From assembly GCA_964547875.1 (NCBI GenBank), contig CAZJPE010000001.1, forward strand, positions 38,535 to 102,534: a stretch of 64,000 bases of DNA, read 5' to 3'. The translations under genes and the position numbers were made by a program. This stretch comes from Candidatus Woesearchaeota archaeon (GTDB lineage: Archaea > Nanobdellota > Nanobdellia > Pacearchaeales > GW2011-AR1). A model generated the notes under the pieces. The model saw nothing but the letters and a program-made list of their open reading frames with translations. It was not told where the DNA came from and did not search any database. Of the stretch, positions 37,683-63,076 are shown piece after piece (position 1 is the first letter of the stretch; every line of letters starts with the position of its first letter).

Positions 37683-40646
37683 ATGACAGAAAGAAAATTA
37701 ATTAAATTTATTTTGTCTAGTTTTATAATAGTTGTTTTAGTATTTTCTATTCCCGGAGTTATTGCCCCCTCACATCCTGATAATATAGATTTTATAATAG
37801 AAGATGTCGATACTATTATATATTATGAATGTGGAAGTATTGATGGCGCAATTGCTTCTTCAATTTCACATGACATGGGGATTCCTTCTTTTTGTGGCGA
37901 ACATGATTTGGTTCATGAAGATTTTTTAACTGAATTTAAAGATGATGGCTTATACGCAAATGTAAATAGAGTTGTTATTCTCGGTGGCGAGGCTGTTGTT
38001 CCTAGTGAAGTTCAGCAGGTTTTAGATATACATGGAGAAGTTGTTGGAGGATATGATACTTATAGAATAGAAGGAACAACTGCAACAGGAACTGCTGTTG
38101 AAGCTATTGAATATTTTTATGGTCCAGAGATGCTACAAGAAGTTACATTAGTTGCTTATGAAGGAGATTCTAATTCTGATTACAATGAAGTTCTGCATTT
38201 AGCTGCAGAATCAGATGGAGGTATTATTATTCCTGTTCCATCTGATGCTAATGGTTTGCCTGCGGAGGTTGTTGAAACTTTAGATACAATTAACCCAGAT
38301 GAAAGTATGACTATTAATATAATAGGAGATTTTGAGCAAGAAGCAATTGTAAAAGATGACATCCAAGAAATAGGAGCTGTAGTAGAAACAGAAATAGACG
38401 GAACTAATCCTGAGGTTGTTGAAGAGCAAGTAGAAGAGTTAGTAATAGAAAATATTCAGCCTGGAGAGTCAGTTGATATAGTTTATGTTGAAGAGGGAAG
38501 CCAGCCTCCTGTTGTGCAAGATGAAATAGTTATATTTTATACAGATGAAAATAATGATGGTATAGATGACGAAAGCGGAAGCGCTTTAGACGACATTGGA
38601 GTAGGATTATATAATGAGTTAATTGAAAAAGGAGCAAGCGTAGATGATATTAAATGTACTGGCAGTCATACTTCTGTTTGGGCTGATTTTGAGGTAGAAA
38701 TAGAGGGAAGAGGAGAGTTAGTTGAGGTGGTAGAATATACAAATGCAGAAGATTTAATTGGAATTGAGCTGACTACTGATAAGGAACAGGCGGAAGAGAT
38801 TTCTAATGAATTTAAAGAAGAGGAAGATGAATGGGCAGAATTAGCAGAACAGCATAAGGCAGAATTTGGAGCAGCACTGCCTTCTATGATTGAGCAGTTT
38901 AAGGCGTATTATATTGAAATAAAAGATACATTATCTCCAGAGGCTTTGGAACTAGCTAATAAAATAATAGACGAGGGAAATAAAGGGGATTCTGTAGCGC
39001 AATGGCAATTAATGCATGCTTTTGCTAATTCTTATGAGCATGAAGAATACGTTGAGAATTGCCATACTGATGAGGCTTGCAGAAACGAACATGTAGAGAT
39101 GGAATATTTGAATACTGAAGATGCTCTTGTTGAATTTGTTGGAACTGATAGGGCTGGAGAAATTACTAATTTAGATTTTGGAACTAAGGTTAAATTATTG
39201 GGGATGGATGATTTTGTCCCTCCTACGCCTGAAGAAGAAAGTGCGTTTAAGGCAGATATAACTGAAATCTTAGCAACCGGAGCAAGCATAGAGAGTTTAC
39301 CAGCTGAATATGTTAATGAAGTTAAGGGAGAGGCTTATTCTATATATGCTGAAGAATTGAAGAGCGAATATGAGGCAGCCGGTAGGACAACTGAAGCAGC
39401 TGCTTTAACTCCTGAAGAAGTAGCGAGAATATTTGATGATAGATTAGTTGTTGAGAGTGAGGCTTATTTGTCTGGACTTGTAAGCCATGAAGATTTTGCA
39501 GACCCTGCTAAGAGGGCAGAGACTATGGCAAAGATGGAGAGTATTCATAGCGAATTTGAGAGCAAAGGCGTTACAGAAAATTATTATTTGACACCTGAAT
39601 ATTGGAAAGAGGCTTATAATAAATATACTACAGATGGGACTTTGCCAGAGAATTTTGTTAAAGAATGCGAAGCAGCTGTATCTAGTTATAGGACATGGGA
39701 AGAAGCTTATCCAGGGGTTTCTTATGATCCTCGTGACTCATTCTATAATGCAAAGACCGGACAGTTTAGTTATACAGATCATGAAAATAGGGTTGTGTCA
39801 GGAGTTTATGACGGAACTGAAGGAACTTACACATTTACTAATGAAAATGGCGAATTAGTGCAGGGAACTGATGTAGGAGAGGTGAATAAGTATACAGGCG
39901 ATTATGGAGGATGGACTTTTGATAAAAGCTCTGGCTCATGGAAAGGACCAGGCGGAGAGACATATATACCCCCATCTGTTTATAATCCTGTTACAGGAAC
40001 ATATGATTACCACCCTTCTTCAGGCGAACATAGCGATGTCGATGGTTATATTTATCAATGGGGAAGCAAGGGACTTTCTGGAGGAATTTATACTGGGCCA
40101 GGCTCGGCATGGACTGCTCCTGAAGGATGGACACAGAGTTCTGATGGAACATGGACAAGTTCTGATGGACAGACATATTCTGCAAGCACATCTTATTATA
40201 GTCATTCTGGCAGCGAAGGATTTAAGAGCAGTGGAGAGGTATGGACACAGAGTTCTGATGGAACATGGACAAGTTCTGGAGGAGCAACTTATTCTGGCTA
40301 TCACGATAGTGGATCTTATAGTTATGTTTCTCCTTCTGGCGAGAGTTATAGTGGAGGAACATATAGTGGTAGCGAAACCGGGACATATGGCCCAGCAGCA
40401 GGTACAACACAGATAGATCCCTCGGGAAATACATGGACACAGAGTTCTGATGGAACATGGACAAGTTCTACTGGGGAAACATCTAGTGTGGGAACATCTA
40501 CTGGAGGAACAACAACATCCGGGACGACAGATAGTGGAGGTGGATCTGCTCCTAGCGGTGGGGATGGTGGCGGTGGAATGACAGGACATGCAATATATGA
40601 CTCTTCGTTAACAAGAAGCTGGTTAGGTAGATGGCTTTTGGGCTAA
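37683..40646 (+). CDS. Large (987 aa) highly acidic secreted protein with C-terminal WTQSSDGTWTSS repeats
   Basis: Signal/TM start; Glu/Asp-rich; repeats near 40125-40500; terminal SWLGRWLLG. Confidence 0.6.
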   Translation: MTERKLIKFILSSFIIVVLVFSIPGVIAPSHPDNIDFIIEDVDTIIYYECGSIDGAIASSISHDMGIPSFCGEHDLVHEDFLTEFKDDGLYANVNRVVILGGEAVVPSEVQQVLDIHGEVVGGYDTYRIEGTTATGTAVEAIEYFYGPEMLQEVTLVAYEGDSNSDYNEVLHLAAESDGGIIIPVPSDANGLPAEVVETLDTINPDESMTINIIGDFEQEAIVKDDIQEIGAVVETEIDGTNPEVVEEQVEELVIENIQPGESVDIVYVEEGSQPPVVQDEIVIFYTDENNDGIDDESGSALDDIGVGLYNELIEKGASVDDIKCTGSHTSVWADFEVEIEGRGELVEVVEYTNAEDLIGIELTTDKEQAEEISNEFKEEEDEWAELAEQHKAEFGAALPSMIEQFKAYYIEIKDTLSPEALELANKIIDEGNKGDSVAQWQLMHAFANSYEHEEYVENCHTDEACRNEHVEMEYLNTEDALVEFVGTDRAGEITNLDFGTKVKLLGMDDFVPPTPEEESAFKADITEILATGASIESLPAEYVNEVKGEAYSIYAEELKSEYEAAGRTTEAAALTPEEVARIFDDRLVVESEAYLSGLVSHEDFADPAKRAETMAKMESIHSEFESKGVTENYYLTPEYWKEAYNKYTTDGTLPENFVKECEAAVSSYRTWEEAYPGVSYDPRDSFYNAKTGQFSYTDHENRVVSGVYDGTEGTYTFTNENGELVQGTDVGEVNKYTGDYGGWTFDKSSGSWKGPGGETYIPPSVYNPVTGTYDYHPSSGEHSDVDGYIYQWGSKGLSGGIYTGPGSAWTAPEGWTQSSDGTWTSSDGQTYSASTSYYSHSGSEGFKSSGEVWTQSSDGTWTSSGGATYSGYHDSGSYSYVSPSGESYSGGTYSGSETGTYGPAAGTTQIDPSGNTWTQSSDGTWTSSTGETSSVGTSTGGTTTSGTTDSGGGSAPSGGDGGGGMTGHAIYDSSLTRSWLGRWLLG
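40129..40480 (+). repeat. Three near-identical 36-nt copies (tggacacagagttctgatggaacatggacaagttct) encoding WTQSSDGTWTSS
   Basis: Copies at ~40129, ~40243 and ~40436 seen directly. Reverse-strand ORFs here (40020-40589) are spurious Cys/Ser-rich mirror frames. Confidence 0.6.
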
Positions 40647-44750: not shown

Positions 44751-47700
44751 ATGACAGAAGAAAATAACGAAAAGAAAATTGACGAAGCGATTGAGGAAAA
44801 GGAAAGAGAGAGAAGGAAGAAGGACATGATTGAGAATGGCGTTCAGGGAACTGAAATAGTTGAGGAGATGGAAAAATCTTACATTGATTATGCGATGTCT
44901 GTGATTGTGCAAAGGGCGCTGCCTTCTGTTGAAGATGGCTTGAAACCAGTGCATAGAAGAATTTTGTATTCAATGGAGCAGCTTGGGCTTGATGCTTCAA
45001 AGCCTACAAAAAAATCTGCTACTATTGTAGGAGATGTTATTGGAAAATATCATCCTCATGGAGACATTGCTGTTTATGATGCGCTTGTTAGATTAGCGCA
45101 GGATTTTTCTTTGCGCTATCCTCTTGTGCATGGGCAAGGAAATTTTGGCTGCTTCACAGCAGATACAAAAGTTAAACTTGCTGATGGCAGAGATTTATCT
45201 TTTATTGAGTTGATTGAAGAAAACAATAATGGGAAAAGGAATTTCACATTTACAATAGATAATGGCATTGTTAAAATAGCAGAAGTAAAAAATCCTAGAA
45301 TGACTAAAAAAAATGCAGAGATTATGAAAGTTTTTCTTGATAATGGTCAGGAAATCAAATGTACATTAAATCATTTATTTATGTTAAAGGATGGAAGCTA
45401 TAAAGAAGCAAGAAATCTAAAATCTGGGGACTCGTTGATGCCTCTTTATACGAAACTATCTACTGAAACTGACAGCCTAAAGAATCCAAAAACCATTGGC
45501 TATTCGATGATATTTCAGCCAAAATTAAAATCTTGGAATTTTATTCATATATTGGCTGATGAGTGGAATTTAGATAATAAAATATATGCAGTAAATTCTG
45601 GCAGAATAAGACATCACATTGATTTTAATAAGTTAAATAATAATCCTATAAATATCAAAAGAATGCATTGGAAAGAGCATTGGCAGACACATTACAATTT
45701 AACTTCTTCAAGACATAAAAATGATTTAGATTATAGAAAGAAATTGGAAGAGGGAAGGAGAAGGTTTTGGAGCGACGCTAAAAATCGAGAAGTTTATTCT
45801 CAAAGAATGACTGAAAGAAATTTAGAGAATTGGAAAAAAAGCAGTTATAGAGAAGAAAAACGCATTCAACTTAGTGAAATTAATAAAAAATATTTTAAAG
45901 AGAATCCAGAAGCTATAGAAATAATAAGAAAAAGAGCTTCTATAACTATGAAAAAAATGTGGGAAATTCCAAGATATAAAGAACTTTTTCATGAAAAAAT
46001 TGTCGCTTCTAATAAAAATAGAAAATCAAATCTAACTGGAAAAAAGAAATTTTTAAAGATATGTAATTATTTGCTGACTAAGAATTTACCATTAACAAAA
46101 GAAAATTTTGAAAATATTAGACAAAATATTTTTGGAATAAAAAGCTTTACCAGTTGGAATCATGGAATTAAAAAACATTTTAATGGAGATAAAAATTTAA
46201 TTTTAAATGAATTAAATGGGAATCATAAGGTTGTAGATATAGAATTTATCAATCAACATACTAGCGTTTACGATCTAACAATTGATGATACGCATAATTT
46301 TGCCCTTTCGGCAGGGATTTTTGTGCATAATTCATTAGACGGAGATTCAGCTGCAGCCTATAGATATACAGAAGCACGATTGAGTAAAATCTCTCAAGAG
46401 CTTTTGGCAGACATTGACAAAGAAACTGTCAAGATGAATCCGAATTTTGATAATTCTACAAAAGAACCAGAGACATTGCCTGCTAAACTGCCTAATCTCT
46501 TACTAAATGGGGCGACTGGAATAGCAGTCGGCATGGCTACTAACATACCTCCGCATAATTTGATAGAGTTGTGCGATGCTATTATTGCGTATATTGACAA
46601 TTCAGATGTCAGTATAGATGAACTTTTGCAGATTGTTAGAGGACCTGATTTTCCAACTGGAGGACATGCAATGGGGCCTGGAATTTTAGAGATGTACAAA
46701 ACAGGAAAAGGAAGGATAGTCATGAGAGCTAGAACCTCAATAGAGGAGAAAAAGGGAAGAGAAAACATAATTGTTACAGAGATTCCTTATATGGTTAACA
46801 AGGCAGAGCTGGTTAAGGATATTGCGAGGCTTGCAAGCGAGAAGAGATTGTCTGACATTTCTGACATATGGGATGAATCTGCAAAGGGAAAGATAAGAAT
46901 TGTTATCGAATTGAAGAAAGGCGTTGATTCAAAATATACGATAAACAGATTATACAAATTGACTAATATGCAGACTAATTTTGACGCTAATGTTTTAGCC
47001 TTGGTTGGCAAACAGCCGAGAGTGCTGAATTTGAGGGATGTTATTGTTGAGTATGTTAAATACAGAAGAATGATTGTTACTAATAGAAGTAAGTTTGAAT
47101 TGAAGAAAGCAGAAGATAGATTAGAAATTGTTCTCGGATTATTGATAGCCTTAAAGAATATAGATAGCATTGTTGAGCTTATAAAAAAGAGCAAGACAGT
47201 CAGCGAAGCGCATGAAGGGCTTATGAAGAAATTTGATTTTAGCGACAGACAGGCAAGGGCTGTTTTAGAGACGAAATTGCAGCAGCTTACTTCATTAGAG
47301 CACACAAAATTAAAGGAAGAGGAGCAGAAGCTGAAAGAGACAATAGAATATCTGAAAAATGTTTTGGGCTCTGACAAAGAGATTTTGAAAATTATCAAGA
47401 AAGAGGTTAATGAGCTGAAGAAGGAATATGGAGATGAGAGGAGGACTAAGATCGTGAGAAAGATTGATGAAATTTCTGAAGGCGACTTGATTGAGAAAAA
47501 AGACGTTGTTGTTATGCTGACAAATTCTGGATATATCAAGAGAGTTGATCTTAAGACTTATAAAGAGCAGAAAAGAGGAGGGGCAGGCGTTATGGGTACG
47601 GGATTAAAGGATGATGATTTTGTGAGAAAGATGATTAGCTGTTCAACTCATGATTATTTGCTGTTCTTTACAAAAAGAGGCAGAGTTTACTGGCTTAAGG

Positions 47701-48464
47701 CGCATGACGCTCCTGCTGCAGAAAGACAGGGTAAAGGAAGAAGCATTGCAAACTTACTGAATTTAAGAGAGGAGGCAATTGCCAATGTTATGGCTATTAC
47801 TAACTTTGAATCTGGGTATTTAATGTTTGCTACAAAATTAGGAATTGTGAAGAGGCTGCCTTTAAAGGATGTTTCTAATCCCAGAAGCACGGGAGTTAGA
47901 ATAATGAATCTGCCTGCTGACGGGAGTGACGAGATAATTAATGTCAGCAGAGTAGAGGATGGGCAGGAAGTATTGATTATCACAAAGAAAGGACAGGCTA
48001 TTAGATTTAATTCCAATGATGTTAGGGCTATGGGTAGAGCGAGTTATGGAGTCAAAGGAATTGATTTAGCAAAGAATGATTTAGTTGTTTCTTTAATGGC
48101 TGTTCCTAAAGATGGAAAGACAACTGTTCTAACACTAACGGAAAAGGGATTTGGGAAGAGGTCTGATATTGTGGAATATAGAAAAACTGCGAGAGCTGGA
48201 AAGGGCGTTATTAATTTAAAGACAAATGACAAGACAGGAAGCGTTATTGCATCTGTAGCTGTGAATGACAAAGATTCTGTTATTATTACTACAACAAAAG
48301 GCAATATTATAAGAATTCCAATGAAGGACTTGAGGGTTATGGGGCGAGCAACTCAGGGAGTGAGAGCTGTAAAGCTCAAGGAAGGAGATAAGGTTGCCGA
48401 TGTTGTTCGAGTCCCTGTAATGATTGAAGACTCTCGTTTTGCTGATATGTTTAGTAATCTTTAA
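44751..48464 (+). CDS. gyrA: DNA gyrase subunit A interrupted by an in-frame intein (extein ~843 aa)
   Basis: [23 protein letters not shown], catalytic Tyr in [32 protein letters not shown]-terminal beta-pinwheel repeats. A 394-aa insertion sits between GQGNFG and SLDGDS. Confidence 0.9.
45150..46331 (+). mobile_element. Intein (394 aa) with HNH-type homing endonuclease inside gyrA
   Basis: Starts with Cys ([13 protein letters not shown], block A); block [13 protein letters not shown]-like [24 protein letters not shown]; blocks [24 protein letters not shown] followed by Ser+1. Confidence 0.85.
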
Positions 48465-48789: not shown

Positions 48790-49173
48790 TTAGTGCTTTG
48801 ATACTGCCCATTTTCCAGGACCGCTTAAAGCAATTGTTATCAAGCCTGCTATTCCTATCAGATGAAAAAATGAGTTGCTTGAAGTAATTCCTCCATTCGG
48901 AACAACTACGAGAATCCACGCTACTGCTAGAATTATGGCCAATGGCCATGTTGTATATTTAGTTTTATAGCCTATAAGGATTAATGCGCCGAAAACAGTC
49001 TCCGAAAGGATTAAAAGCCATCCGAAGAAAGAAGGCAATGGAAAGCCTAATCCTCCAAGCATGCCAATCACTTGATCAGGGCCCATGAACTTTTTTATTC
49101 CTGCTATCAGGAATAAAAGGCCTATAACAACTCTTAACAGAGTATGGCCAAGTATGTGTTTGTCTGATGTCAT
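48790..49173 (-). CDS. DoxX-family membrane protein
   Basis: LLRVVIGLLFLIAGIKKF and four TM helices typical of DoxX. Confidence 0.6.
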   Translation of the reverse strand: MTSDKHILGHTLLRVVIGLLFLIAGIKKFMGPDQVIGMLGGLGFPLPSFFGWLLILSETVFGALILIGYKTKYTTWPLAIILAVAWILVVVPNGGITSSNSFFHLIGIAGLITIALSGPGKWAVSKH

Positions 49174-49400: not shown

Positions 49401-49850
49401 TTAATATTTCCAATTATAATATCCTGCGAGAGTTTCGTAACGAGGCTCGTAGTAATATGATTTCGTGTAAGCGTTAAAATTGTTGTCGTAATCTCTATCA
49501 TAATAATTGTAAGGCATTTTATACCTCCAATTTGAATAAGAGGGATAGGAATATTTGTATAAAGGCGCTCTGGGATAAGGCCTGTAATAATAATCGCCAT
49601 AATATTGGTTATAATCTCTTTCTATAGTTGTTCTCCTTGTTGTTGAAAGATATATCTTTTCTCTTCCCCATGGGTAATAATTTGTATAGTATTCTTTGTC
49701 ATAGGAATATGATGTTTTTCTGTAATCGTCATCATAATTGCTGTAACCATAGCTATGAGGAGGATAGTAATAGGAATAGCCTGCTGATGCTAAATTAAGG
49801 GAAAATAGCGCTGTTAAGAGTATCACTGCAAAGAGATATTTTTTGCTCAT
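49401..49850 (-). CDS. Secreted, extremely tyrosine-rich low-complexity protein
   Basis: Signal peptide MSKKYLFAVILLTALFSLNLASA. The mature part is ~30% Tyr (YSYYYPPHSYGYSNYDDDY...), rich in D/R/N/P, no Cys. Confidence 0.5.
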   Translation of the reverse strand: MSKKYLFAVILLTALFSLNLASAGYSYYYPPHSYGYSNYDDDYRKTSYSYDKEYYTNYYPWGREKIYLSTTRRTTIERDYNQYYGDYYYRPYPRAPLYKYSYPSYSNWRYKMPYNYYDRDYDNNFNAYTKSYYYEPRYETLAGYYNWKY

Positions 49851-49946
49851 ATATTTTAGTATAAGTTTTTATATTTAAATCTTGTTTACTACTTTTTTTG
49901 ATGATATTTCAATAAAATTTAAATAAAAAGCTTTAAGCAAAATATT

Positions 49947-50207
49947 ATGTTTGATGAAAAAAGGAGAGAATATAGTTTTGAGGAAGTAACTGAAATAATT
50001 AATGTAAAAGAGAGATATAACAGAATGACGGATAGTTGTTTAAAAGTGATTGGTAGGAGTAATAATATTGATGGAGCATTTTTGGGTGAGATTTATACTT
50101 ATAGGAACGAATTAGGGAAATATCCTAAATTTTTCCCTTTATATAAGGAGCAATTTGAGCCAGTAGCTGATAGAGCAATAAATATCCTGAAGGAGAGAAA
50201 GAATTAG
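49947..50207 (+). CDS. Hypothetical protein
   Basis: ORF only. Confidence 0.35.
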   Translation: MFDEKRREYSFEEVTEIINVKERYNRMTDSCLKVIGRSNNIDGAFLGEIYTYRNELGKYPKFFPLYKEQFEPVADRAINILKERKN

Positions 50208-50235: not shown

Positions 50236-50460
50236 ATGAAAATGTTGAAAAGGAGCGTGACAATTGAGTTAGACGAGAGAGTTGTTTCAAGGCTTCAAAG
50301 GAGGGCAAAGCGAAATATGCTTTCTTTAAGGGAATTAATAGAAGATATTATAAGGAGAAGCGCTGTCTCTTCTGGCGGGGCATCCATCAGCGGGGATTCA
50401 GACGACGCTCTCGTAAGCATATTCAGCAGAAAAACTAAGGCAAGGAAAAAATGGCGATAG
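50236..50460 (+). CDS. Ribbon-helix-helix (CopG/Arc-like) DNA-binding protein
   Basis: KRSVTIELDERVVSRLQRRAKRNMLSLRELIEDII beta-strand plus two helices. Confidence 0.5.
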   Translation: MKMLKRSVTIELDERVVSRLQRRAKRNMLSLRELIEDIIRRSAVSSGGASISGDSDDALVSIFSRKTKARKKWR

Positions 50461-50732
50461 ATACGATTGTGATATCAGCGAGCCTTGGCGCATTAGGCGG
50501 GCTGACAAGAGGAATTGTAGGCTTGCTGAAAGCATTGTCCCTTAGGCGAAGAATTATATGGAATTACTGGCTTATTACAGTTGTTATAGCAACAATAATA
50601 GGAACATTTGTCGGCGTTGTTTTTGATTTTGATTATCGGCTTTCTTTGCTTTCTGGCTATGCAGGCTCGGATATATTAGAGGGAATTTACAAAAGCTTTA
50701 AAGTCCAAAAGGTTTATACAAAGCAGAAATAA
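50451..50732 (+). CDS. Small membrane protein (2-3 TM)
   Basis: Hydrophobic helices; overlaps the RHH gene end. Confidence 0.4.
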   Translation: MAIDTIVISASLGALGGLTRGIVGLLKALSLRRRIIWNYWLITVVIATIIGTFVGVVFDFDYRLSLLSGYAGSDILEGIYKSFKVQKVYTKQK

Positions 50733-53532: not shown

Positions 53533-54606
53533 CTATATTTCATTTTTCTCGCGCATATAATCTATTCCTTCCCTTAAACTTACATTTATTCCATCATTTT
53601 CAAATAAACCACGAATTATTTTACCATCATGTCTAAAATGGCTGTTATCATGGGCAATATCTCCAGAATTTTCATTAAAAGAGTAATATAATAATAAGCT
53701 TTCATCATGTATATTTCCAAGCGGACTATTATCTGTATATCTCCCAGTAGTAAATAGAGAAGAAACTTCTGCATCATTTAATGAGGCGTTATAAATTCTG
53801 AATTCGTCTAAACTGCCTGGAACAGTTTGTTCTGTTTCAGTGTTCCAATCCCCAATTTTACCAGGATTAATAGCTCCCACAGCCAAGAAATTTTCAAAAT
53901 CATGAAAGTCATAAAATTCCATTCTTCTGTTTTTTCTTATAACAGCGCTATCAATTGGCTGTTTTTTACCATCTATATATATTGCAAGATAGCCCAAATT
54001 TGGTTTTGCGGTAAGAACAATGTGGTGCCATTCTCCATCTGAAATATTAATATGGCCATGCGTAGCGCCCCTTAATTCACTTCCAAATTCATCTCTTAGA
54101 TTAAAAGCAATATAATTTGTTGTCTGTCCAGTATAATCAATATGCGCGCTCACATTATCGTTTAAATATGCAGAGAACATAGTATCCGTGTCATCACCAT
54201 TTTGTGTTCCAAACGGAGTCCAAACTTCTGTTGTATTTGTCGAATTAACCCAAAAAGAAACAGTAATATTTGTAGATTCTAAATTACTTCCTAAACCTTC
54301 TATAAGTCCTGCATTAATATGCGTCTTAAAATCTCCATCAAGAAATATCCATGTTTGATTTTTCGCAATCAATTCAAAACCGCCCTCATAGAATTTAGTA
54401 AGATTATTTATTATTGCCTCTTTATAAAGAATTTTTTCTCCGTTTTCTTTAATAAAATAGATTTTAATTTTATTTATATCTTTTTCATTTTCGCCATTTT
54501 CTGAAACAGAAAAACCAGTGATTTTACTTTTTAAAAAGAGAATAATAAACCCTACTAATATTAAAATCATTAGGATTATTGTAATTAAATAGAATCTTTT
54601 ATTCAT
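53533..54606 (-). CDS. Signal-anchored LamG/ConA-like domain protein, last gene downstream of the toxin array
   Basis: N-terminal TM; HGHINISDGEWHHIVLTAKPNLGYLAIYIDGKKQ...GSLDEFRIYNASLNDAEVSSLF LamG pattern. Confidence 0.6.
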   Translation of the reverse strand: MNKRFYLITIILMILILVGFIILFLKSKITGFSVSENGENEKDINKIKIYFIKENGEKILYKEAIINNLTKFYEGGFELIAKNQTWIFLDGDFKTHINAGLIEGLGSNLESTNITVSFWVNSTNTTEVWTPFGTQNGDDTDTMFSAYLNDNVSAHIDYTGQTTNYIAFNLRDEFGSELRGATHGHINISDGEWHHIVLTAKPNLGYLAIYIDGKKQPIDSAVIRKNRRMEFYDFHDFENFLAVGAINPGKIGDWNTETEQTVPGSLDEFRIYNASLNDAEVSSLFTTGRYTDNSPLGNIHDESLLLYYSFNENSGDIAHDNSHFRHDGKIIRGLFENDGINVSLREGIDYMREKNEI

Positions 54607-54808: not shown

Positions 54809-55366
54809 TTAATCAATAATTAAAAAGTAAAAAATTATAGAAAGTAATATAAAAATAATTAATGGAATAATTATATAATATTTTAGCCTTGTTTTAGACA
54901 ATTTAATTAAATAAGCTCCTAAGAAAATTAAGAACAGGGGAGATAGTAAGGGCATCAAAAAGATTTGAGAATAATATAATATTCCTAATATTCCAGATAA
55001 AGGACGAAGAATGATTGGCTCAAAATAAATAATTGAGAAAAGAAAAAGAATAATAACTCCAGAAATTAGCGAAGTGATTCCCATGTGTTTTAATGATTTT
55101 TCTTCTCTTTCTTCAAATTTTATATTAGCTTTAAATTTAATAAATAAGAAAAATGTTATTATAGGTATGCTAGTTATTAGTAAATTCAAAAAATACCATT
55201 CAAATCCGCCCTCATGAGAGATTGAATTGATCCAAATAAAAAAATGTAGCATTCCAAATACTATACTCGTTATTAATAAAATCCAATATCTTATTCTAGG
55301 TAATTTTCTCTTTGGCTTAGCCATCTTAGTGCTTAGATTATTTTTATTTTTATCTCCATTTATCAT
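54809..55366 (-). CDS. Multi-TM membrane protein, candidate immunity protein for toxin 55369-56343
   Basis: 185 aa, 5-6 hydrophobic helices; starts 3 nt after the toxin stop. Confidence 0.5.
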   Translation of the reverse strand: MINGDKNKNNLSTKMAKPKRKLPRIRYWILLITSIVFGMLHFFIWINSISHEGGFEWYFLNLLITSIPIITFFLFIKFKANIKFEEREEKSLKHMGITSLISGVIILFLFSIIYFEPIILRPLSGILGILYYSQIFLMPLLSPLFLIFLGAYLIKLSKTRLKYYIIIPLIIFILLSIIFYFLIID

Positions 55367-55368
55367 CT

Positions 55369-56343
55369 TTATTTCCTACCTTCATAGGCATATATGACTC
55401 CGTCTGGCCCGGGATCTTCAGTTTTACTATAAGGTTTAGAAAACCAAGAACTAATCTGTTCTAAATATGAGTTTTTTGATAAAGAATCTATTGGTTTTGC
55501 TTCGCTATTTTCACTACTGGATTTTTCAAGCTCATCTCCAATATATTCAATTATATTGTTTTTCGTTGTTTTAATATTTTCACGTTTGAAATCAAAAATT
55601 AAATGTTTTATATGCTCCTTCTTTGTTGTTCCCCAATCAGGTCCTCCTTGATGTATTGTATCTCCAAAAACATGCAAATATCTTCCTGCTCCGTTGTCTC
55701 CTCTTCGATATGCTTGAACAAATTTCTGTGCATTTTGCCGGAGTATATTTTCCATATTTTCATTACTAATATCAGAAGCAAGGTGAAAGAATCTATGATT
55801 TTCAGTTTCGGTGTACGAGCGCAAAGGAGGAATGTCTGGTGTAATGGAATCCCATGCTAGTTTAAGCGACTCAATTCTTCCAAATCCCAGTTCTCTACTA
55901 GCGCCATATGTCCCTATAAAATGTATGTCAACTGTTGATTTTCCTGTCGGGTCTGTATATCTATACGGATTATTAAGCACATAAGAATAACAATTCAATG
56001 CCTGAGGATTATAAATATCTGGCTTGATTGTATCACATTGTGTAAACAACTTGATAAATGAACTATAATACCTCGCACCTAAATAATCTAAATCAACTAA
56101 CTTATCTCTCTCCTTGCCAGCAAACAAAAATCTACTTAATTCCAATCCAGAATAAATCTCTCCAAACGGCAAATAAAACTCTTCCTCAACAACATCTCCT
56201 GTCTGATTTGTAACTAATGTTGTGCTGCCTAAATGGTCATCATGATAAAATGTCTTTGCGCCTGAATTGTCTTTCTTCGCAATTAATTTATCATTCGCAT
56301 AATAATATGTTTCATTGAGGATAGTTCCGCTCATTATTTTCAT
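55369..56343 (-). CDS. Orphan RHS-tip toxin module (starts directly at the conserved tip, no N-terminal domain) with a C-terminal toxin domain of unknown activity
   Basis: MKIMS-GTILNETYYYANDKLIAKKDNSGAKTFYHDDHLGSTTLVTNQTGDVVEEEFYLPFGE...DLDYLGARYY...ALNCYSYVLNNPYRYTDPTGK is the RHS repeat-associated core ending; tail KPYSKTEDPGPDGVIYAYEGRK. Confidence 0.7.
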   Translation of the reverse strand: MKIMSGTILNETYYYANDKLIAKKDNSGAKTFYHDDHLGSTTLVTNQTGDVVEEEFYLPFGEIYSGLELSRFLFAGKERDKLVDLDYLGARYYSSFIKLFTQCDTIKPDIYNPQALNCYSYVLNNPYRYTDPTGKSTVDIHFIGTYGASRELGFGRIESLKLAWDSITPDIPPLRSYTETENHRFFHLASDISNENMENILRQNAQKFVQAYRRGDNGAGRYLHVFGDTIHQGGPDWGTTKKEHIKHLIFDFKRENIKTTKNNIIEYIGDELEKSSSENSEAKPIDSLSKNSYLEQISSWFSKPYSKTEDPGPDGVIYAYEGRK

Positions 56344-56352
56344 TTTAGGGTT

Positions 56353-56709
56353 TTATTTTTCATCAACTAATTTTTCTTTCTCTAATATTTCTTTTAATTC
56401 CTTCTTTAATATTGGAATATCTTCATTAATTGTCTTCCAAATTATCCCAATATCAACACCAAAATAATGATGTATCATTTTATCCCTCATCCCTACTATT
56501 TTCTTCCATTCAATATTTTTATATTTATCAATAAATTCCGATGTTAGATTTTTAGCTGCTTCGCCTATTACTTCTATTCTCCTTATAGTAGCGTCCAATA
56601 TATCTCTATTATTCTCAAAATCTCTCTTTGAAAGATTCTTTATAGATTTTTCAATAAGGGTTATATTATCAAGTATATGACTAATAAATACTAAAGGATT
56701 CTTTCTCAT
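56353..56709 (-). CDS. HepT-like (DUF86) toxin of a HepT/MNT module
   Basis: RDKMIHHY gives the Rx4HxY catalytic motif; 118 aa. Confidence 0.8.
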   Translation of the reverse strand: MRKNPLVFISHILDNITLIEKSIKNLSKRDFENNRDILDATIRRIEVIGEAAKNLTSEFIDKYKNIEWKKIVGMRDKMIHHYFGVDIGIIWKTINEDIPILKKELKEILEKEKLVDEK

Positions 56710-56987
56710 ATTATCCTAATTTCCTCTTTAAGTATAGATTTCCTTAATAATGGATTTATTCCTTTATAAGTAAGCAAATCTACTTTTTTCTTTAGTTTTC
56801 TATTTAGTTCCATTTCTAATTCTATCAAACTCAATAAGCCTCCATTGAATTCTATTAAAATATCAATATCGCTATTTTTTTTAGCCTCGCCCCTTGCATA
56901 ACTGCCAAAAATTCCTGCCTTAGGTATATGATATTTTTTTAAGGTGCCTTTAATTTTTGATTTTATCTTGCTTATTTCATTTACCAT
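56706..56987 (-). CDS. MNT minimal nucleotidyltransferase antitoxin
   Basis: GIFGSYARGEAKKNSDIDILIEF = GSxxRG...DxD nucleotidyltransferase motif; 4-nt overlap with HepT. Confidence 0.8.
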   Translation of the reverse strand: MVNEISKIKSKIKGTLKKYHIPKAGIFGSYARGEAKKNSDIDILIEFNGGLLSLIELEMELNRKLKKKVDLLTYKGINPLLRKSILKEEIRII

Positions 56988-57074
56988 ATTATCCTATGAA
57001 ATTGATATTTTTTATATCTTTGGGATTTCCCATCAGGTTGTATAAACCTAAATAAAGTAGAAGGCTCATAATAT

Positions 57075-57554
57075 CTAATTTCCAGAATTATCTTTCTTTG
57101 CAACTAATTTACCATTTGCGTAATAATAAGTTTCATTTAATATTGTTCCATTGCTGTAACGAACTTGAATGAAATTGTCACTTATCTTATTTCTAAAATC
57201 AACAAATTCATCATAGATTATGTTTCTAAATCCAAAATCATAATTTTCATTATGAAATATAAAATGCAAAGAAATTCCTTGATTTAACCAATAGATATTT
57301 TGTTCTTCGTCATAAATGTAACCACTATCAAAATTTTTATCAGAATTATTTAATCCATAAATTGAGAATGTCAAACATTCTCCTAAAATATTATTTGTTA
57401 AATTATTTGAATGACAGATTATAGTGGATTGTGAATAGAAGTCTATTGTGTCGTTCCTTTCAGAGTTCTCTATGTTGTTTTGGGCAAGTGAGAGATTTAA
57501 TAATATGAGAATTAGGAAAATTGCTAAAATTATTTTTGGTAGATTAATATTCAT
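57075..57554 (-). pseudogene. Truncated toxin gene: Sec signal peptide plus N-terminal domain, ending 20 residues into the RHS-tip motif
   Basis: MNINLPKIILAIFLILILLNLSLA signal; ends ISDNFIQVRYSNGTILNETYYYANGKLVAKKDNSGN then stop, i.e. the same tip segment other array members continue through. Confidence 0.55.
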
Positions 57555-57559
57555 TTTTA

Positions 57560-57823
57560 TTATATAATCATTAAAATTATTATTGCTATAATGATGAGAG
57601 ATATGCCTATTCCTGTAGCAGAATTTTTACTTGTTGGTGCGCCCCTAATCCATGCTTTTTTAGTTTTTATAGATTTTACGCCTCCATGTAAAAGCCATAC
57701 GCCAAATAATATTAAGATAATACTATATAAATTAACTTCTTTAAAAGAATAAGATTTTATGAATCCAATTATAAAATATATTAAGTCATATAACCAAATA
57801 AAATTACTTTTCTTTTTCACCAA
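57560..57823 (-). CDS. Small 2-TM membrane protein, candidate immunity for toxin 57827-59182 (non-ATG start)
   Basis: 87 aa; two TM helices; no ATG available near the start (TTG/GTG); starts 3 nt after the toxin stop. Confidence 0.45.
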   Translation of the reverse strand: MVKKKSNFIWLYDLIYFIIGFIKSYSFKEVNLYSIILILFGVWLLHGGVKSIKTKKAWIRGAPTSKNSATGIGISLIIIAIIILMII

Positions 57824-57826
57824 TTT

Positions 57827-59182
57827 TTATATACAGGACATTATAACCCCACATCCTCCTCTGTTGTTATTACTTCTTGACTGTTCTTTATTAGATTTTG
57901 AAGATATTGCATTATTTAAATTTCTTCCGCCTCTATTCGATTGTGAGTTAGAGTTTGTTTGTTTATTGGAAGAATCTACCGTTCCTTTAAATATAGATTC
58001 TCCAAATTCAGAATATCCAGATTGTGCTGTTTGAGATATCGCTTCGCTAAATGTAGCTTTTCCTAATTGTGAGGATGGATAAAATTGGCCAGGCGTTCTT
58101 CTTATTATGCCAGGAAGAGAACTTTGCGAGATTCTTGATGAAATTACAGAATTAAAAACGGCGGATGTTAAAATATCTCTGCCTGAAATCTCATTATACC
58201 CTCTTCCTTCCACTAAAGTCTCTTGAGCAAACTCTTGTCCAGCACCAATGCCTGCTAATGCTGTTGTTCTAATAGCAGTGCCAACACCTGCTGTTGCAAT
58301 ACTTCTAAGCCCACCACTAGCTATAGCCGCTACTGTTGTTCCAGGAGAAATTAGTATACTTGCAGCAGTCGCTCCACCAGCAATCGTTCCAGATAACACA
58401 GCTTTGCCTATATCCCCAGTTTGCTGATAAGTAATATAACCTTGGATGCCTCCTATGACTATTGCGGGCACAGCAACAACCAAGACAGGAATGTTTCCTG
58501 TCTCATCCGTATACTTATACGGATTATTCAAAACATAAGAATAACAATTCAATGCCTGTGGATTATAAATATCTGGCTTTATTGTATCACATTGAATAAA
58601 TAGACTAGCAAATGGATTATAATACCTTGCGCCCAAATAATCTAAATCAACTAACTTATCCCTTTCCTTGCCTGCAAACAAGAATCTGTTTAGTCCAAGA
58701 CCTGAAAATATCTTTCCGAACGGCTCATAGAAATTCTCTTCTACAATATTGCCAGATTGATTTGTTACTAATGTAGTGCTACCTAAATGATCTCCATGAT
58801 AATAATTCTTACTTCCAGAATTGTCTTTCTTAGCAACAAGTTTATCATTGGCATAGTAATAAGTTTCATTTAATATAGTTCCATTAGAATATCTAATTTG
58901 AATAAAATTATCAGAGATATAATAAGTAGTTGCGTTAATGCCTGTGCTATAATCATAATCTGCCTTCTTAACCCTATTTCCTTCTGCATCATAAGCATAT
59001 TGCTCTATTAATCTTCCATTTGTTGAGTTAGTTATTTTTGTTAATTGGTTAAATCCATCATAAGTATAGTTTTTATCAAATCCTGAAATGAGATTGCCAT
59101 TTGGGTCATAAGGAAAAGGAGTCCAGATAATTTCTCCTTCCTCAATATAATTATCTTCTTTCTGTATTGTTATGAGTTTCAT
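57827..59182 (-). CDS. YD-repeat/RHS-tip polymorphic toxin with glycine-zipper (membrane-active) C-terminal domain
   Basis: N-terminal MKLITIQKEDNYIEEGEIIWTPFP; YD repeats YTYDGFNQL / YAYDAEGNRV; RHS tip ...YYHGDHLGSTTLVTNQSG...DLDYLGARYY...NNPYKYTDETGN; then IPVLVVAVPAIVIGGIQG...TIAGGATAASILISPGTTVAAIASGG; tail RGGCGVIMSCI. Confidence 0.75.
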   Translation of the reverse strand: MKLITIQKEDNYIEEGEIIWTPFPYDPNGNLISGFDKNYTYDGFNQLTKITNSTNGRLIEQYAYDAEGNRVKKADYDYSTGINATTYYISDNFIQIRYSNGTILNETYYYANDKLVAKKDNSGSKNYYHGDHLGSTTLVTNQSGNIVEENFYEPFGKIFSGLGLNRFLFAGKERDKLVDLDYLGARYYNPFASLFIQCDTIKPDIYNPQALNCYSYVLNNPYKYTDETGNIPVLVVAVPAIVIGGIQGYITYQQTGDIGKAVLSGTIAGGATAASILISPGTTVAAIASGGLRSIATAGVGTAIRTTALAGIGAGQEFAQETLVEGRGYNEISGRDILTSAVFNSVISSRISQSSLPGIIRRTPGQFYPSSQLGKATFSEAISQTAQSGYSEFGESIFKGTVDSSNKQTNSNSQSNRGGRNLNNAISSKSNKEQSRSNNNRGGCGVIMSCI

Positions 59183-59691
59183 TTCTTAATATTTTTATAT
59201 TTCTTAAATAACCCTCCTACTATTAATACAACAAATATGTATTGTAAGGGATAAATTATTAAAAACGATAGAATCCCAAAAAAATCAACCAAATCTGTAT
59301 AGGAACTTGGATCATAGGGTATAGTTGATTTATTAGCCAAATAAAAGCCAATATTGTTGGCTATTTCGGCTGTTATTCCTATTGGAATCAACATAAATAC
59401 CAACACACTTAAAAATATAAAATGAAAATTATACTTTATAGGTTTCAAATAAGGTATTAAAGTTATTAGATTATGTAATAAATAAAGAGGAATTAAAACT
59501 AAAATAAAGCTTCCTAATATTATCTCTTCTAAACCACTAGAACCAAGAACAGAGAGATATATTTCACTATATTGAAATAGGTAATTTGTAATAAACCAAA
59601 CTATTGCCGTTGATAAAATGATAGAGAAAGAAAGATAAACTATCAATTTCAGCTGATTTCCTATAATATCTTTTATGTTATTTTTTTTCAT
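59179..59691 (-). CDS. Multi-TM membrane protein, candidate immunity for toxin 59693-61051
   Basis: ATG 1 nt after the toxin stop (the track extends to GTG 59700); 4-5 TM helices. Confidence 0.5.
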   Translation of the reverse strand: MKKNNIKDIIGNQLKLIVYLSFSIILSTAIVWFITNYLFQYSEIYLSVLGSSGLEEIILGSFILVLIPLYLLHNLITLIPYLKPIKYNFHFIFLSVLVFMLIPIGITAEIANNIGFYLANKSTIPYDPSSYTDLVDFFGILSFLIIYPLQYIFVVLIVGGLFKKYKNIKK

Positions 59692-59692
59692 C

Positions 59693-61051
59693 TTATGCAC
59701 AACTCATGATTTTGCCACATCCTTTATTTCTACTACCTTCAGATTTATCTTTATTATATGGTTTTTCAACTATTCTTTTATCATAGTTATATGTTTTATC
59801 TATTCCTGGAGAAATTGCCCAAGGAGATAGATCTCCCTTAGGAAAACTACTGCCTGCATTTTCTGTAGCAGTTCTTGCGAAAACATTTGAATTAGATCTA
59901 CTGCTACCTACTTTAGGGTTGAGAACATACGGCACCTTCGCTTCATTCAATTTGTTTCCTTCTGCTATAATATCATTAATAAATTCTGTATCTGTCTTTC
60001 CTTCTGGCGTATTCAATAATACATTGCTATATTCTTTAGTTCCTCCTGTTTTCTCCACATTCTTTCCAAATTGCAAAATACTATTAGGATTAAAAATTCC
60101 ATCTGAAGCATATGCCCCTAAATTGAAGTTGGTTTCTCCTCTAAAGTCTTCCGGATTATCAGGTATAACATTAAAGTAAGAATGAGTAGTATGACTTGTA
60201 ACAAAATTAGAGACCACTCTAAGAAAAAGAATATCACTATTTGCATATTGATTATTTATACTTCTTGTAACTAAATAAACCTCCTTGCCATTTGGGTCTA
60301 TGTATTTATAAGGATTGTTAAGCACATAGGCATAATGATTTAGATTTTGTGGGTTGAATATATTAGCTATCATAGAATCAGGAGAAATAAACATCCTCAT
60401 AATTGAAGCCTGATAATACCTTGCTCCATAATAATAAATATCAACTAATTTATCAAACTCTTGAGCCGTGAATAAATATCTTGAACTTTCACTTCCACTA
60501 TACACATCACCAAACGGCAAATAAAACTCTTCTTCTGTAATATTTCCTGTTTGATTAGTTACTAATGTAATAGAACCCAAGTGGTCAGAATGATAATATG
60601 TCTTTGCACCGCTATTATCTTTCTTTACAATTAATTTATCATTTGCATAGTAATATGTTTCATTTAATATTGTTCCGTTTGTATAGCGGATTTGAATGAA
60701 ATTGTCGCTAATGTAATAGGTTGTTTGATTATTTCCTGTTGTGTAATCATATTCTACTTTCTTTATTCTGTTGCCATCAGCATCATACCTATATTCTGCT
60801 ATAACATTTCCTGTGGCATTCTTCTTTCTAACTGAAGATAATTGATTGAATGGATCATACTCGTAATATTTGCCAAGTCCTTTTATTAAATTTCCATTTG
60901 CGTCATAAGTCATATCTGTGTTATAAGTTAAGAGATTTTCGTAATCTAAGGCGTATTCTAGATAGAGTTCTTCTTCGCTATTATATTTATTTTCTGATAA
61001 AAACGGCGTCCAGATTAGTATGTTATTTTTTGGGTTTGTTAGGATTTGCAT
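59693..61051 (-). CDS. YD-repeat/RHS-tip polymorphic toxin, C-terminal toxin domain of unknown activity
   Basis: N-terminal MQILTNPKNNILIWTPFL; YD repeats MTYDANGNL / YEYDPFNQL / YRYDADGNRI; RHS tip to NNPYKYIDPNGK; ~200-aa unique C-terminal domain; tail EKPYNKDKSEGSRNKGCGKIMSCA. Confidence 0.75.
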   Translation of the reverse strand: MQILTNPKNNILIWTPFLSENKYNSEEELYLEYALDYENLLTYNTDMTYDANGNLIKGLGKYYEYDPFNQLSSVRKKNATGNVIAEYRYDADGNRIKKVEYDYTTGNNQTTYYISDNFIQIRYTNGTILNETYYYANDKLIVKKDNSGAKTYYHSDHLGSITLVTNQTGNITEEEFYLPFGDVYSGSESSRYLFTAQEFDKLVDIYYYGARYYQASIMRMFISPDSMIANIFNPQNLNHYAYVLNNPYKYIDPNGKEVYLVTRSINNQYANSDILFLRVVSNFVTSHTTHSYFNVIPDNPEDFRGETNFNLGAYASDGIFNPNSILQFGKNVEKTGGTKEYSNVLLNTPEGKTDTEFINDIIAEGNKLNEAKVPYVLNPKVGSSRSNSNVFARTATENAGSSFPKGDLSPWAISPGIDKTYNYDKRIVEKPYNKDKSEGSRNKGCGKIMSCA

Positions 61052-61052
61052 T

Positions 61053-61304
61053 TTAAATAAAAGTCAGATATATTCCTAAAATGATTAAAATAATACCTAT
61101 ACAAATGCCTAATGGAGCAAAAAACTTTCTTATAATATTTGCCGCTTTATCTTCGCCAAAAATTTTTCTCCAAATAAAAGCTTTTGGGCTTTTCTTGACA
61201 TAATTCTCTAGAAACTTTTTATCTTTAATGGCTTTTGTCGCATAATAAAAGTTTATTACACCAGCTAATAAAATTAATAAAGAATAAGTGTTAAATTTAA
61301 TCAT
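61053..61304 (-). CDS. Small 2-TM membrane protein (extra/orphan immunity-like gene)
   Basis: 83 aa; sits between the barstar-like gene and the next toxin. Confidence 0.4.
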   Translation of the reverse strand: MIKFNTYSLLILLAGVINFYYATKAIKDKKFLENYVKKSPKAFIWRKIFGEDKAANIIRKFFAPLGICIGIILIILGIYLTFI

Positions 61305-61348
61305 ATTTATATTAGTTTTATTAAGTTTAAAAGTTTTTGTTTTTATTC

Positions 61349-61642
61349 TTATTTCTCAATCTTAAATTTTACATGATATTTATGATTTCTTATTATTTCA
61401 AGTATATTTTTTAAGAATTCTTCAGGCAATTCTTTTTTTGATTTATCAAAGTTTCTCCAAACTAAAATTATCTTTTCTTTGAACTCAAATTGGTATCCTC
61501 CATATAGGATATCGTCAAAAGCATCATAGTTTCTACCAAAACCTTTAAAATCATTAGTCAGCACACTTACTATCTCGTCATAAAATCCTTTTATATCATG
61601 AAAATTTTCTCCATCTATAATAAAAGTCTTTATTTTCTTCAT
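61349..61642 (-). CDS. Barstar-like RNase inhibitor (immunity protein)
   Basis: IIDGENFHDIKGFYDEIVSVL...FGRNYDAFDDIL...IILVWRNFDKSKKELPEEFLKNILEII is colinear with barstar ([21 protein letters not shown]...YGENLDALWDCL...LVLEWRQFEQSKQ). Confidence 0.8.
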   Translation of the reverse strand: MKKIKTFIIDGENFHDIKGFYDEIVSVLTNDFKGFGRNYDAFDDILYGGYQFEFKEKIILVWRNFDKSKKELPEEFLKNILEIIRNHKYHVKFKIEK

Positions 61643-62688: not shown

Positions 62689-63074
62689 TTTTTATCTACA
62701 TTTCTTAATTTTCTCATTAATTTAACAATTCCAAGACCTAAATAAAATCCAATTAATAAACCTGCTATTTTAATAACTAAAAAATCTCCCCAATAATATT
62801 TTAATAATTGCCAAGATATGATGGCTAGTAATATAGAAAATAACAATTCTCTTTCGTTAAGTGAGTTTTTGTTCATTTTAAAAAAGCCCCTTCCTTCTTT
62901 GGAATAGATTATCGATGTTACTAAAAATCCAAAGAATATACCGAGTATCATAATAATTGATCCAAAAATTATAATAAAGACTGGGCTACGCTTGCCTATG
63001 ATAGAGGCACCAATCGCAAGAATCAAAAAAGCAATCCCATACATTATTATTGTAACTATTTTTTCTTTATCCAT
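62685..63074 (-). CDS. 3-4 TM membrane protein, candidate immunity for toxin 63077-64000+
   Basis: The ATG (MDKEKIV...) lies 2 nt after the toxin stop; its end overlaps the next toxin start (ATGA). Confidence 0.5.
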   Translation of the reverse strand: MDKEKIVTIIMYGIAFLILAIGASIIGKRSPVFIIIFGSIIMILGIFFGFLVTSIIYSKEGRGFFKMNKNSLNERELLFSILLAIISWQLLKYYWGDFLVIKIAGLLIGFYLGLGIVKLMRKLRNVDKK

Positions 63075-63076
63075 TT

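Follow-up and report, generated by a model that had tools for sequence, protein, structure and literature searches.

The mussel foot proteins (Mfps) Mfp-3 and Mfp-5 contain 20–30 mol% of 3,4-dihydroxyphenylalanine (DOPA) plus tyrosine (Tyr), and adhesives of the mussel type cohere via aromatic and cationic residues, cation-pi contacts and self-coacervation (PMC5132118). Glycine accounts for 14–29 mol% of mussel foot proteins, and cationic residues for ∼26–28 mol% of Mfp-3f and Mfp-5 (PMC5132118). In Bacillus subtilis, the Tyr-rich spore-coat proteins CotC and CotU form high-mass species, for which dityrosine has been proposed (PMC7944565). Here we describe a gene for a secreted protein of comparably high Tyr content in a 64-kb stretch of DNA from a Candidatus Woesearchaeota archaeon (the whole stretch is called the window below). 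The protein belongs to a family, not described before and restricted to one lineage, of small Tyr-rich secreted proteins that have a defined architecture and share a signature promoter. Our literature search found no paper describing Tyr-rich secreted proteins in DPANN archaea or in other archaea. Little has been established on how DPANN archaea build their envelopes and hold their hosts, and most DPANN surface proteins are unannotated.

49401..49850, minus strand: coding sequence of the Tyr-rich secreted protein, taken from the listing of open reading frames (ORFs) and its translation; 149 aa, ATG start, stop codon at 49401-49403

Forty of the 149 residues are Tyr (26.8%), and 39 of them lie in the 126-aa mature part that follows the predicted cleavage site (31.0%). 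An identical protein is on record (P0001). The original prediction of a secreted protein with ∼30% Tyr and no Cys agrees with the translation: the mature part has neither Cys nor Val, and Ile, Leu, Val, Met and Ala together make up ∼7% of it. The mature region had been given as 125 aa, a trivial difference from the 126 aa found here. Background Tyr, computed from the window ORFs of at least 200 aa, is 4.3%, and the binomial tail for at least 39 Tyr among 126 residues is 1e-22. The gene is the sole Tyr outlier in the window; the runner-up reaches 10.8%, in an ORF of 65 aa. The mature protein has a mass of 16.3 kDa, an isoelectric point of ∼8.9 and a grand average of hydropathy (GRAVY) of -1.69, which makes it very hydrophilic. 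Its charged fraction is 0.25 and its net charge ∼+3, with 10 Arg and 7 Lys (Lys+Arg 13.5%), 7% Pro and 4.0% Gly. It carries 11 YY and 9 YxY motifs, and no N-glycosylation sequon (N-x-S/T) was found in the mature protein.

Mfp-3 and Mfp-5 are the nearest match in composition and in probable physics, being small, secreted and rich in Tyr, with Asn, Arg/Lys, Pro and Trp in addition. The archaeal family shows no sequence homology to them. It also differs in having a predicted β-hairpin core and fixed terminal motifs. Compared with 20–29 mol% Gly in the Mfps and ∼26–28 mol% cationic residues in Mfp-3f and Mfp-5, the archaeal protein has only 4% Gly and 13.5% Lys+Arg. The byssal-like composition first proposed for it therefore holds for Tyr, which is in the mussel range, but not for Gly or Lys+Arg, which are below the values of mussel foot proteins.

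The Mfps further depend on enzymatic conversion of Tyr to DOPA. No gene for a tyrosinase, laccase, peroxidase or similar enzyme was found in the scanned window ORFs or in any of ∼15 neighborhoods, among them those of 10 relatives. This counts against a covalently curing adhesive along the lines of the original prediction, in which oxidation of Tyr to DOPA or dityrosine would let the protein fasten the DPANN cell to its host in the manner of byssal, cuticle or spore-coat proteins. DPANN archaea are generally thought to be host-attached, and the organism belongs to this lineage. Its protein is secreted and anchor-free, and has the YxY and YY motifs counted above. The 31% Tyr also matches the DOPA-plus-Tyr range of Mfp-3 and Mfp-5 (PMC5132118), and there is the precedent of CotC and CotU, which reach high-mass forms, with dityrosine found in spore coats (PMC7944565). 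The low Gly and Lys+Arg contents, far under those of mussel foot proteins, speak against such an adhesive, and the location next to gyrA and the housekeeping-type promoter, both described below, do not suggest a specialized attachment organelle. Oxidation would in addition require O2 or H2O2; many Woesearchaeota are described as anaerobes, and some of the source contigs come from groundwater metagenomes, as judged by contig names. Taken together, covalent curing appears unlikely.

CotC and CotU resemble the archaeal protein as small prokaryotic structural proteins, Tyr-rich with Lys and Asp, that multimerize into a protective extracellular layer. They are not homologous to it, and the archaeal family has no Pfam or NCBIfam match. 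Cot proteins lack a signal peptide and are deposited inside the mother cell. They also lack the hairpin and the GYYNWRY terminus. A third point of comparison is offered by the Tyr "sticker" domains of the FUS type and by matrix proteins high in Gly and Tyr, with which the archaeal protein shares a Tyr spacing of 1–5 residues, low-confidence and probably disordered segments, and Arg as a possible partner. In contrast to these, it is extracellular, poor in Gly and Gln, and charged at one residue in four, and part of its Tyr pattern is position-conserved and flanks a hairpin that is predicted to be structured.

We then considered whether the ORF could be a non-functional, chance or frame artefact of AT-rich DNA, for which the generally AT-rich sequence (33% GC) is the only support. 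Among residues of the mature protein, Ile stands at 1.6% (window background 9.1%), Lys at 5.6% (7.4%) and Asn at 7.1% (6.7%), and as a group the residues favored by AT-rich codons (Ile, Lys, Phe, Asn) are at or below background. Because these other residues are not enriched, the Tyr enrichment is not a by-product of the 33% GC content. Tandem Repeats Finder detected no DNA tandem repeat within 49401-49850, and the residue entropy is 3.47 bits; a low-complexity ORF generated by simple repeats or slippage was ruled out, there being no tandem array under the biased composition. The ORF listing contains no comparably open alternative frame across the region.

The nearest orthologue is encoded on a contig of a Woesearchaeota metagenome-assembled genome (MAG; locus L001; other related loci are numbered likewise), and its protein is ∼82% identical. 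The ratio of nonsynonymous to synonymous substitution rates (dN/dS) between the two genes is 0.18 (dS 0.54, dN 0.10). Tyr was kept at 36 of the 40 positions, including 7 via a TAT↔TAC switch. Tyr codons sit one substitution away from stop codons. Since 40 such codons stayed open over the divergence from L001, a chance or frame artefact is excluded. Approximately 60 clusters of homologues sharing the architecture, and a promoter at fixed spacing, point the same way. We concluded that the Tyr-rich ORF is a real gene under purifying selection, as the original prediction had argued, and the artefact explanation can be regarded as refuted. In the window gene the TAC share of Tyr codons is raised (32.5% vs. 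15%, p = 0.007). This preference was not reproduced across orthologues (p = 0.26), and codon bias was dropped as general evidence of high expression.

A single-sequence search returned 5 relatives and a profile search 36. An exhaustive hidden Markov model search of 1.84 billion representatives gave 62 clusters at 50% identity, none of them annotated. Two long matches among these (663 and 739 aa) were inspected and discarded as spurious, being unrelated repeat proteins. True family members are all small (101–200 aa), and none carries a Pfam domain or any name beyond "hypothetical protein". Wherever a record is named, it is a "Candidatus Woesearchaeota archaeon" or "Nanoarchaeota archaeon" MAG, so that the family, as far as seen here, is confined to DPANN archaea of the Woesearchaeota type. 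Candidatus Woesearchaeota MAGs are also the nearest genomes, so the DPANN origin proposed from the letters alone was correct. Tyr content across members ranges from 11 to 34%, roughly 16–34% in a short subfamily and 11–19% in a long subfamily with an insert. Pfam, NCBIfam and PHROG scans of the window protein gave no match, a Pfam scan of 35 family members gave only single noise-level matches, and a profile search of all PDB sequences gave no match even at E ≤ 10. No relative was detected in viral contigs scanned with the family profile, and a viral structural protein was ruled out.

The architecture was derived from an alignment of 33 members with per-column statistics, and from structures predicted by AlphaFold2 (AF2) with its per-residue confidence measure, the predicted local distance difference test (pLDDT). 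Five parts were distinguished.

49782..49850, minus strand: signal peptide, residues 1-23 (MSKKYLFAVILLTALFSLNLASA), with n, h and c regions, A-S-A at -3 to -1 and predicted cleavage before G24
49761..49781, minus strand: mature N-terminus GYSYYYP, residues 24-30, defined by column conservation
49617..49724, minus strand: predicted long β-hairpin, residues 43-59 and 62-78 (YRKTSYSYDKEYYTNYY-PW-GREKIYLSTTRRTTIER), from AF2 and column conservation
49551..49616, minus strand: variable Tyr/Pro-rich linker, residues 79-100, with pLDDT below 50 and varying length
49404..49550, minus strand: C-terminal module, residues 101-149, defined by column conservation

The signal peptide, already recognized in the original prediction, reads directly as MSKK, YLFAVILLTALFSL and NLASA/G, with the slash marking the cleavage site inferred from the sequence pattern. 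The layout [LIV][AVTS]SA/[GY] is kept in 33 of 33 aligned relatives. The basic n-region, the h-region and the small residues at -3 and -1 agree with those expected of a canonical Sec substrate of type I signal peptidase, whose h-region spans 10–15 hydrophobic residues, and residues 3-22 were modelled as a helix by AF2. A class III (type IV pilin-like) signal was rejected, as no Gly/Ala follows the basic residues (MSKK-YLF; MNKK-LRLF) and a conserved A-x-A follows the h-region.

The mature N-terminus has the consensus G-Y-[SD]-[YG]-Y-Y-P, with Tyr at positions 25, 27 and 29 in at least 73% of members and P30 in at least 90%. The hairpin is rich in Thr, Lys, Arg and Glu; it has a conserved W-G at its tip and a conserved E77…Y80, and in the family alignment the segment ends in T-T-x-E-R-x-Y. 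AF2 run on the family alignment gave a mean pLDDT of only 63, and a hairpin of 17+17 residues with block-mean pLDDT of 86–88 over residues 51-70. An independent AF2 run on a member of the long subfamily gave 92–93 for the equivalent hairpin. The signal helix and the hairpin are the only well-predicted parts in the model of the window protein; in both models the Tyr-rich arms, with their low pLDDT, are probably disordered.

A Foldseek comparison of the AF2 model with the PDB returned nothing below E = 1. The best geometric matches, all at E > 1, were the stems of pore-forming toxins (LukGH, CDTb, aerolysin and alpha-hemolysin), which share a two-stranded hairpin of ∼35 residues. The archaeal hairpin differs from these in being rich in Thr, Lys, Glu and Arg on both faces, without an alternating hydrophobic face, and in lacking a cap or rim domain. 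A membrane-inserting toxin stem was rejected: the match is one of geometry only, the hairpin is polar and charged on both faces, and no fold is predicted for the remainder of the protein.

In the linker, composition is conserved and positions are not; most of its Tyr residues are found in less than 40% of members. The C-terminal module follows the consensus YPSYSNWRYKxPY…Y(T/S)KxYYYxPRY(D/E)xxxGYYNW(R/K)Y-COOH, in which the element NWRY occurs twice and the protein terminates at the motif. Y133, Y134 and W147 are invariant, and nine further positions are conserved in at least 90% of members; those at this level in the C-terminal module are R109, Y132, P136, G143, Y145, N146 and Y149. At least 70% of members share 15 of the 40 Tyr residues at fixed positions, nearly all in the mature N-terminus and the C-terminal module, and another 19 are position-variable. 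Since Tyr content nevertheless stays high, the alignment indicates that both composition and specific motifs are under selection. A PGF-CTERM/archaeosortase signal or other C-terminal anchor was rejected, as the protein ends in LAGYYNWKY without a hydrophobic segment and all members stop at the motif. An outer-membrane β-signal at the aromatic C-terminus was checked by eye and also rejected.

The conservation of the termini in sequence, and not in composition alone, raises the question of a specific binder. Here the C-terminal Tyr/Trp/Arg module, in which NWRY occurs twice and YYY-x-PRY once, would offer an aromatic platform to a glycan of the cell's own or the host envelope, to a mineral or metal surface, or to a surface-layer (S-layer) partner, with the hairpin as a spacer. 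Proteins usually bind sugars through aromatic platforms, and this agrees with such a role. So does the apparent need for a free C-terminus, the chain terminating precisely at the motif in nearly all members, and so does the use of one promoter motif by this gene and by large surface proteins, which may be its partners. No similarity to carbohydrate-, cell-wall- or metal-binding families was seen in Pfam, NCBIfam or PDB searches, AF2 predicts no folded domain for the module, and no conserved neighboring gene hints at a ligand. We consider specific binding possible, although on the unlikely side.

Alignment of the 110 nt upstream of 10 orthologues uncovered a conserved promoter.

49872..49893, minus strand: promoter motif AGTAGTAAACAAGATTTAAATA, 22 nt, its 3' end 21 nt before the ATG
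49872-49879, minus strand: TATA box TTTAAATA, the 3' part of the promoter motif

A purine-rich sequence resembling a B recognition element (BRE), AAACAAGA, precedes the TATA box. The 22-mer is found at the identical 21-nt spacing in most of the 10 orthologous loci, including those whose proteins are only ∼30% identical. The deviants are L012 and L014, where the sequence has diverged, and L015, where the annotated start lies further downstream. A spacing of 21 nt implies a leaderless or near-leaderless mRNA, the transcription start being placed from sequence. Within the window the complete motif has a single occurrence (0.01 expected), and a shorter BRE/TATA core is also present upstream of a few other genes and of tRNA-Asp.

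When public metagenome contigs were scanned for exact matches to a degenerate form of the motif, 32 loci were obtained. In nine of them the gene behind the motif is a family member, again at a spacing of 21 nt. At six loci the motif stands before large proteins of a single family that carry a signal peptide; most of these have Big_13 Ig-like domains, and one has a β-helix domain as well. Three loci precede Thr/Ser-rich proteins with a C-terminal membrane anchor. One precedes a tRNA-Ser pair and the remainder are miscellaneous; a gene for a 98-aa protein is also among the motif-bearing genes. The 3' end of the motif lies 21–25 nt before the start codons (window, L001, L003, L007, L008, L010, L015, L016 and the metagenome loci L017-L048). 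From these occurrences, the motif is probably the strongest-consensus promoter of the lineage, serving genes that are transcribed at very high levels and that in many cases belong to the envelope, and it is suggestive as a proxy for high expression. The 22-nt motif could thus mark highly transcribed genes in the Woesearchaeota lineage. A scan for bacterial sigma-70 promoters and intrinsic terminators was uninformative for an archaeon.

The position of the gene is conserved as well.

44751..48464, plus strand: gyrA (intein-containing, Pfam domains), convergent with the Tyr-rich gene and used as synteny anchor

In the window and in at least seven other genomes (L001, L008, L010, L014, L015, L016 and L020), 0.5–3 kb separates the family gene from the gyrA 3' end. 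The proteins encoded at the gyrA-syntenic loci range down to 30–46% identity with the window protein. Because the synteny holds despite such low identity, it marks a vertically inherited core chromosomal gene. Between genomes whose GyrA C-terminal regions are 75–81% identical, the Tyr-rich proteins are 38–46% identical, and this fast divergence relative to GyrA is typical of exposed extracellular proteins.

Export without an anchor, fast evolution, Tyr-rich arms, a hairpin and a strong-looking promoter together lead us to favor, tentatively, an abundant secreted protein of the envelope or extracellular matrix that self-associates non-covalently as a "cement", a role that we rate as plausible though short of probable. 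We infer its localization, abundance and self-assembly alike. With a near-consensus strong promoter and a leaderless mRNA, synthesis would be abundant; after export by Sec and release outside the single membrane, the protein would associate with itself. An isolated β-hairpin (17–24 residues per strand) is expected to be unstable; because it cannot stand alone, it probably pairs with the hairpins of other copies. The Tyr-rich arms could serve as multivalent "stickers": Tyr would stack on Tyr, form cation-pi contacts with Arg or Lys, and engage in hydrogen bonds, the type of contact to which mussel-type proteins owe their cohesion (PMC5132118). Together the copies would build a cohesive, protein-based layer or cement within the envelope or on top of it, with no requirement for covalent cross-linking, and this layer may in addition adhere to the S-layer, glycans, surfaces or a partner cell. 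The conserved termini, hairpin, promoter and gyrA synteny, which go beyond the composition on which the original prediction was based, point to an abundant housekeeping envelope component and not specifically to an attachment organelle.

Several observations weigh against this preference. The AF2 models are poor overall (mean pLDDT 59–63), and monomer models cannot show assembly. The 25% of charged residues and 7% Pro disfavor a classical amyloid. There is no general codon signal of high expression, and the promoter motif also precedes ill-fitting genes, such as an ATP-synthase OSCP-like gene at a different spacing. The conserved, sequence-specific C-terminal module could be explained by recognition of one defined ligand or partner no less well than by generic stickiness.

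A bolder form of the non-covalent matrix is quite unlikely: the family would be the main extracellular "glue" of Woesearchaeota, an abundant, catechol-free Tyr/Arg self-assembling layer that holds partner cells or surfaces. The hairpin would then be the backbone of a polymer, with the N- and C-terminal motifs joining copies head-to-tail or docking onto the S-layer. If true, this would be the first archaeal counterpart of metazoan wet adhesives. Self-assembly without enzymatic oxidation, if true, would offer materials science a DOPA-free, Tyr-based adhesive or condensate. The conserved position and a promoter common to Ig-like and β-helix surface proteins, which may be S-layer components, make the protein a candidate major extracellular component; were it a minor protein, it would reduce to one more lineage-specific hypothetical family. 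The family is in any case compact and easily synthesized, with recognizable motifs (signal peptide, GYSYYYP, β-hairpin and GYYNWRY C-terminus).

We also examined the genes on either side of the Tyr-rich gene.

48790..49173, minus strand: DoxX-family membrane protein (Pfam DoxX, 9e-15), directly downstream of the Tyr-rich gene
50236-50460, plus strand: ribbon-helix-helix (RHH)-like protein, 74 aa, with weak RHH/Arc-like Pfam and PHROG matches
50451-50732, plus strand: 93-aa two-helix membrane protein (TM93), overlapping the RHH gene; no family, only weak holin-like noise

The RHH and TM93 genes form a pair upstream of, and divergent from, the family gene in L001, L003, L015, L016, L020 and L032. 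In L003 the upstream ORF was assigned to RHH by position only and gave no tblastn match to the 74-aa RHH protein. Where tblastn matches exist, TM93 is 55–87% identical (55% in L003) and RHH 68–82%; the pair is much better conserved (68–87% in most loci) than the Tyr-rich protein. It is absent beside the family gene in L007, L008, L010, L012 and L014, and the 93-aa gene is also found away from the family, in L042. The pair was dropped as an obligate partner, being present in approximately half of the loci, with TM93 occurring elsewhere as well.

These neighbors bear on a secreted antimicrobial or competition factor, similar to an archaeocin, with the divergent RHH protein as its regulator and TM93 as its immunity protein. 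The product is small, secreted, mildly cationic and rich in aromatic residues, at least 6 genomes have the small membrane-protein and regulator genes beside its own gene, toxin-antitoxin modules occur in the variable island that separates this gene from gyrA, and the window holds an RHS-type toxin array. The putative immunity protein is, however, far more conserved than the putative toxin (78–87% vs. 38–46%), the opposite of toxin-immunity co-evolution, and the pair is missing from half of the loci. At a GRAVY of -1.69 the protein has no amphipathic or hydrophobic membrane-attacking segment, the hairpin being polar on both faces, and its gene is single-copy, syntenic and vertically inherited. 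An antimicrobial function is thus very unlikely.

The variable island that separates the family gene from gyrA contains DoxX in the window, and PIN, HEPN/nucleotidyltransferase or HepT modules, unrelated ORFs or Tyr-rich genes elsewhere. DoxX was dropped as a functional partner, since it is adjacent only in the window genome and lies 7 kb away in L007. Radical-SAM (B12-binding) proteins were considered as peptide modifiers; they occur only in L008, L010 and L016, at 2–5 kb, and are absent from the window and the other loci. A Sec signal peptide and a mature protein of 126 aa do not fit a radical-SAM peptide precursor either.

Further, different Tyr-rich genes (15–31% Tyr) lie directly downstream of the family gene in four related loci, and no member of these tandem genes was found in the window.

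L003, 1639-1923 and 2607-3077: extra Tyr-rich genes
L008, 5487-5852: extra Tyr-rich gene
L010, 5597-6109: extra Tyr-rich gene
L012, 5654-6499: extra Tyr-rich gene

Most of them encode a signal peptide. The one in L012 encodes an Asp/Tyr/Asn-rich protein of 281 aa with an N-terminal membrane helix. One group among these genes, a second Tyr-rich family with the motif YG.GPQLVR.RI, has only 5 clusters in the protein database.

Other features of the window and of the related loci were noted in passing. GyrA of the window has 1237 aa, enlarged by an intein (Pfam Intein_splicing). Its counterparts in L001, L008 and L010 (844–865 aa) have no intein, whereas in L014 and L015 GyrA has one that includes a LAGLIDADG endonuclease. 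A GyrB intein is present in L010 and not in the window. Between the Tyr-rich and RHH genes, an 86-aa ORF (49947-50207, plus strand) has its own TATA-like box; it has no counterpart in the related loci and no family match. Three large predicted surface proteins are encoded at 7706-11989 (1427 aa, Big_9/cadherin-like), 37683-40646 (987 aa, no Pfam match) and 53533-54606 (357 aa, Laminin_G_3), and they are unrelated to the promoter-sharing family of surface proteins in the metagenomes.

The region 54809-63970 (minus strand) is an array of RHS/YD-repeat C-terminal cassettes. The ORFs at 57827-59182 and 59693-61051 have RHS_repeat/RHS core matches, that at 61639-62688 has a C-terminal barnase-type ribonuclease domain, and that at 55369-56343 shares the YYYANDKL…DHLGST junction. 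A HepT-like RNase is encoded in the same region, at 56353-56709. Each ORF of the array is followed by a small ORF, a possible immunity gene, and this DPANN array resembles a polymorphic-toxin locus that carries orphan toxin/immunity modules.

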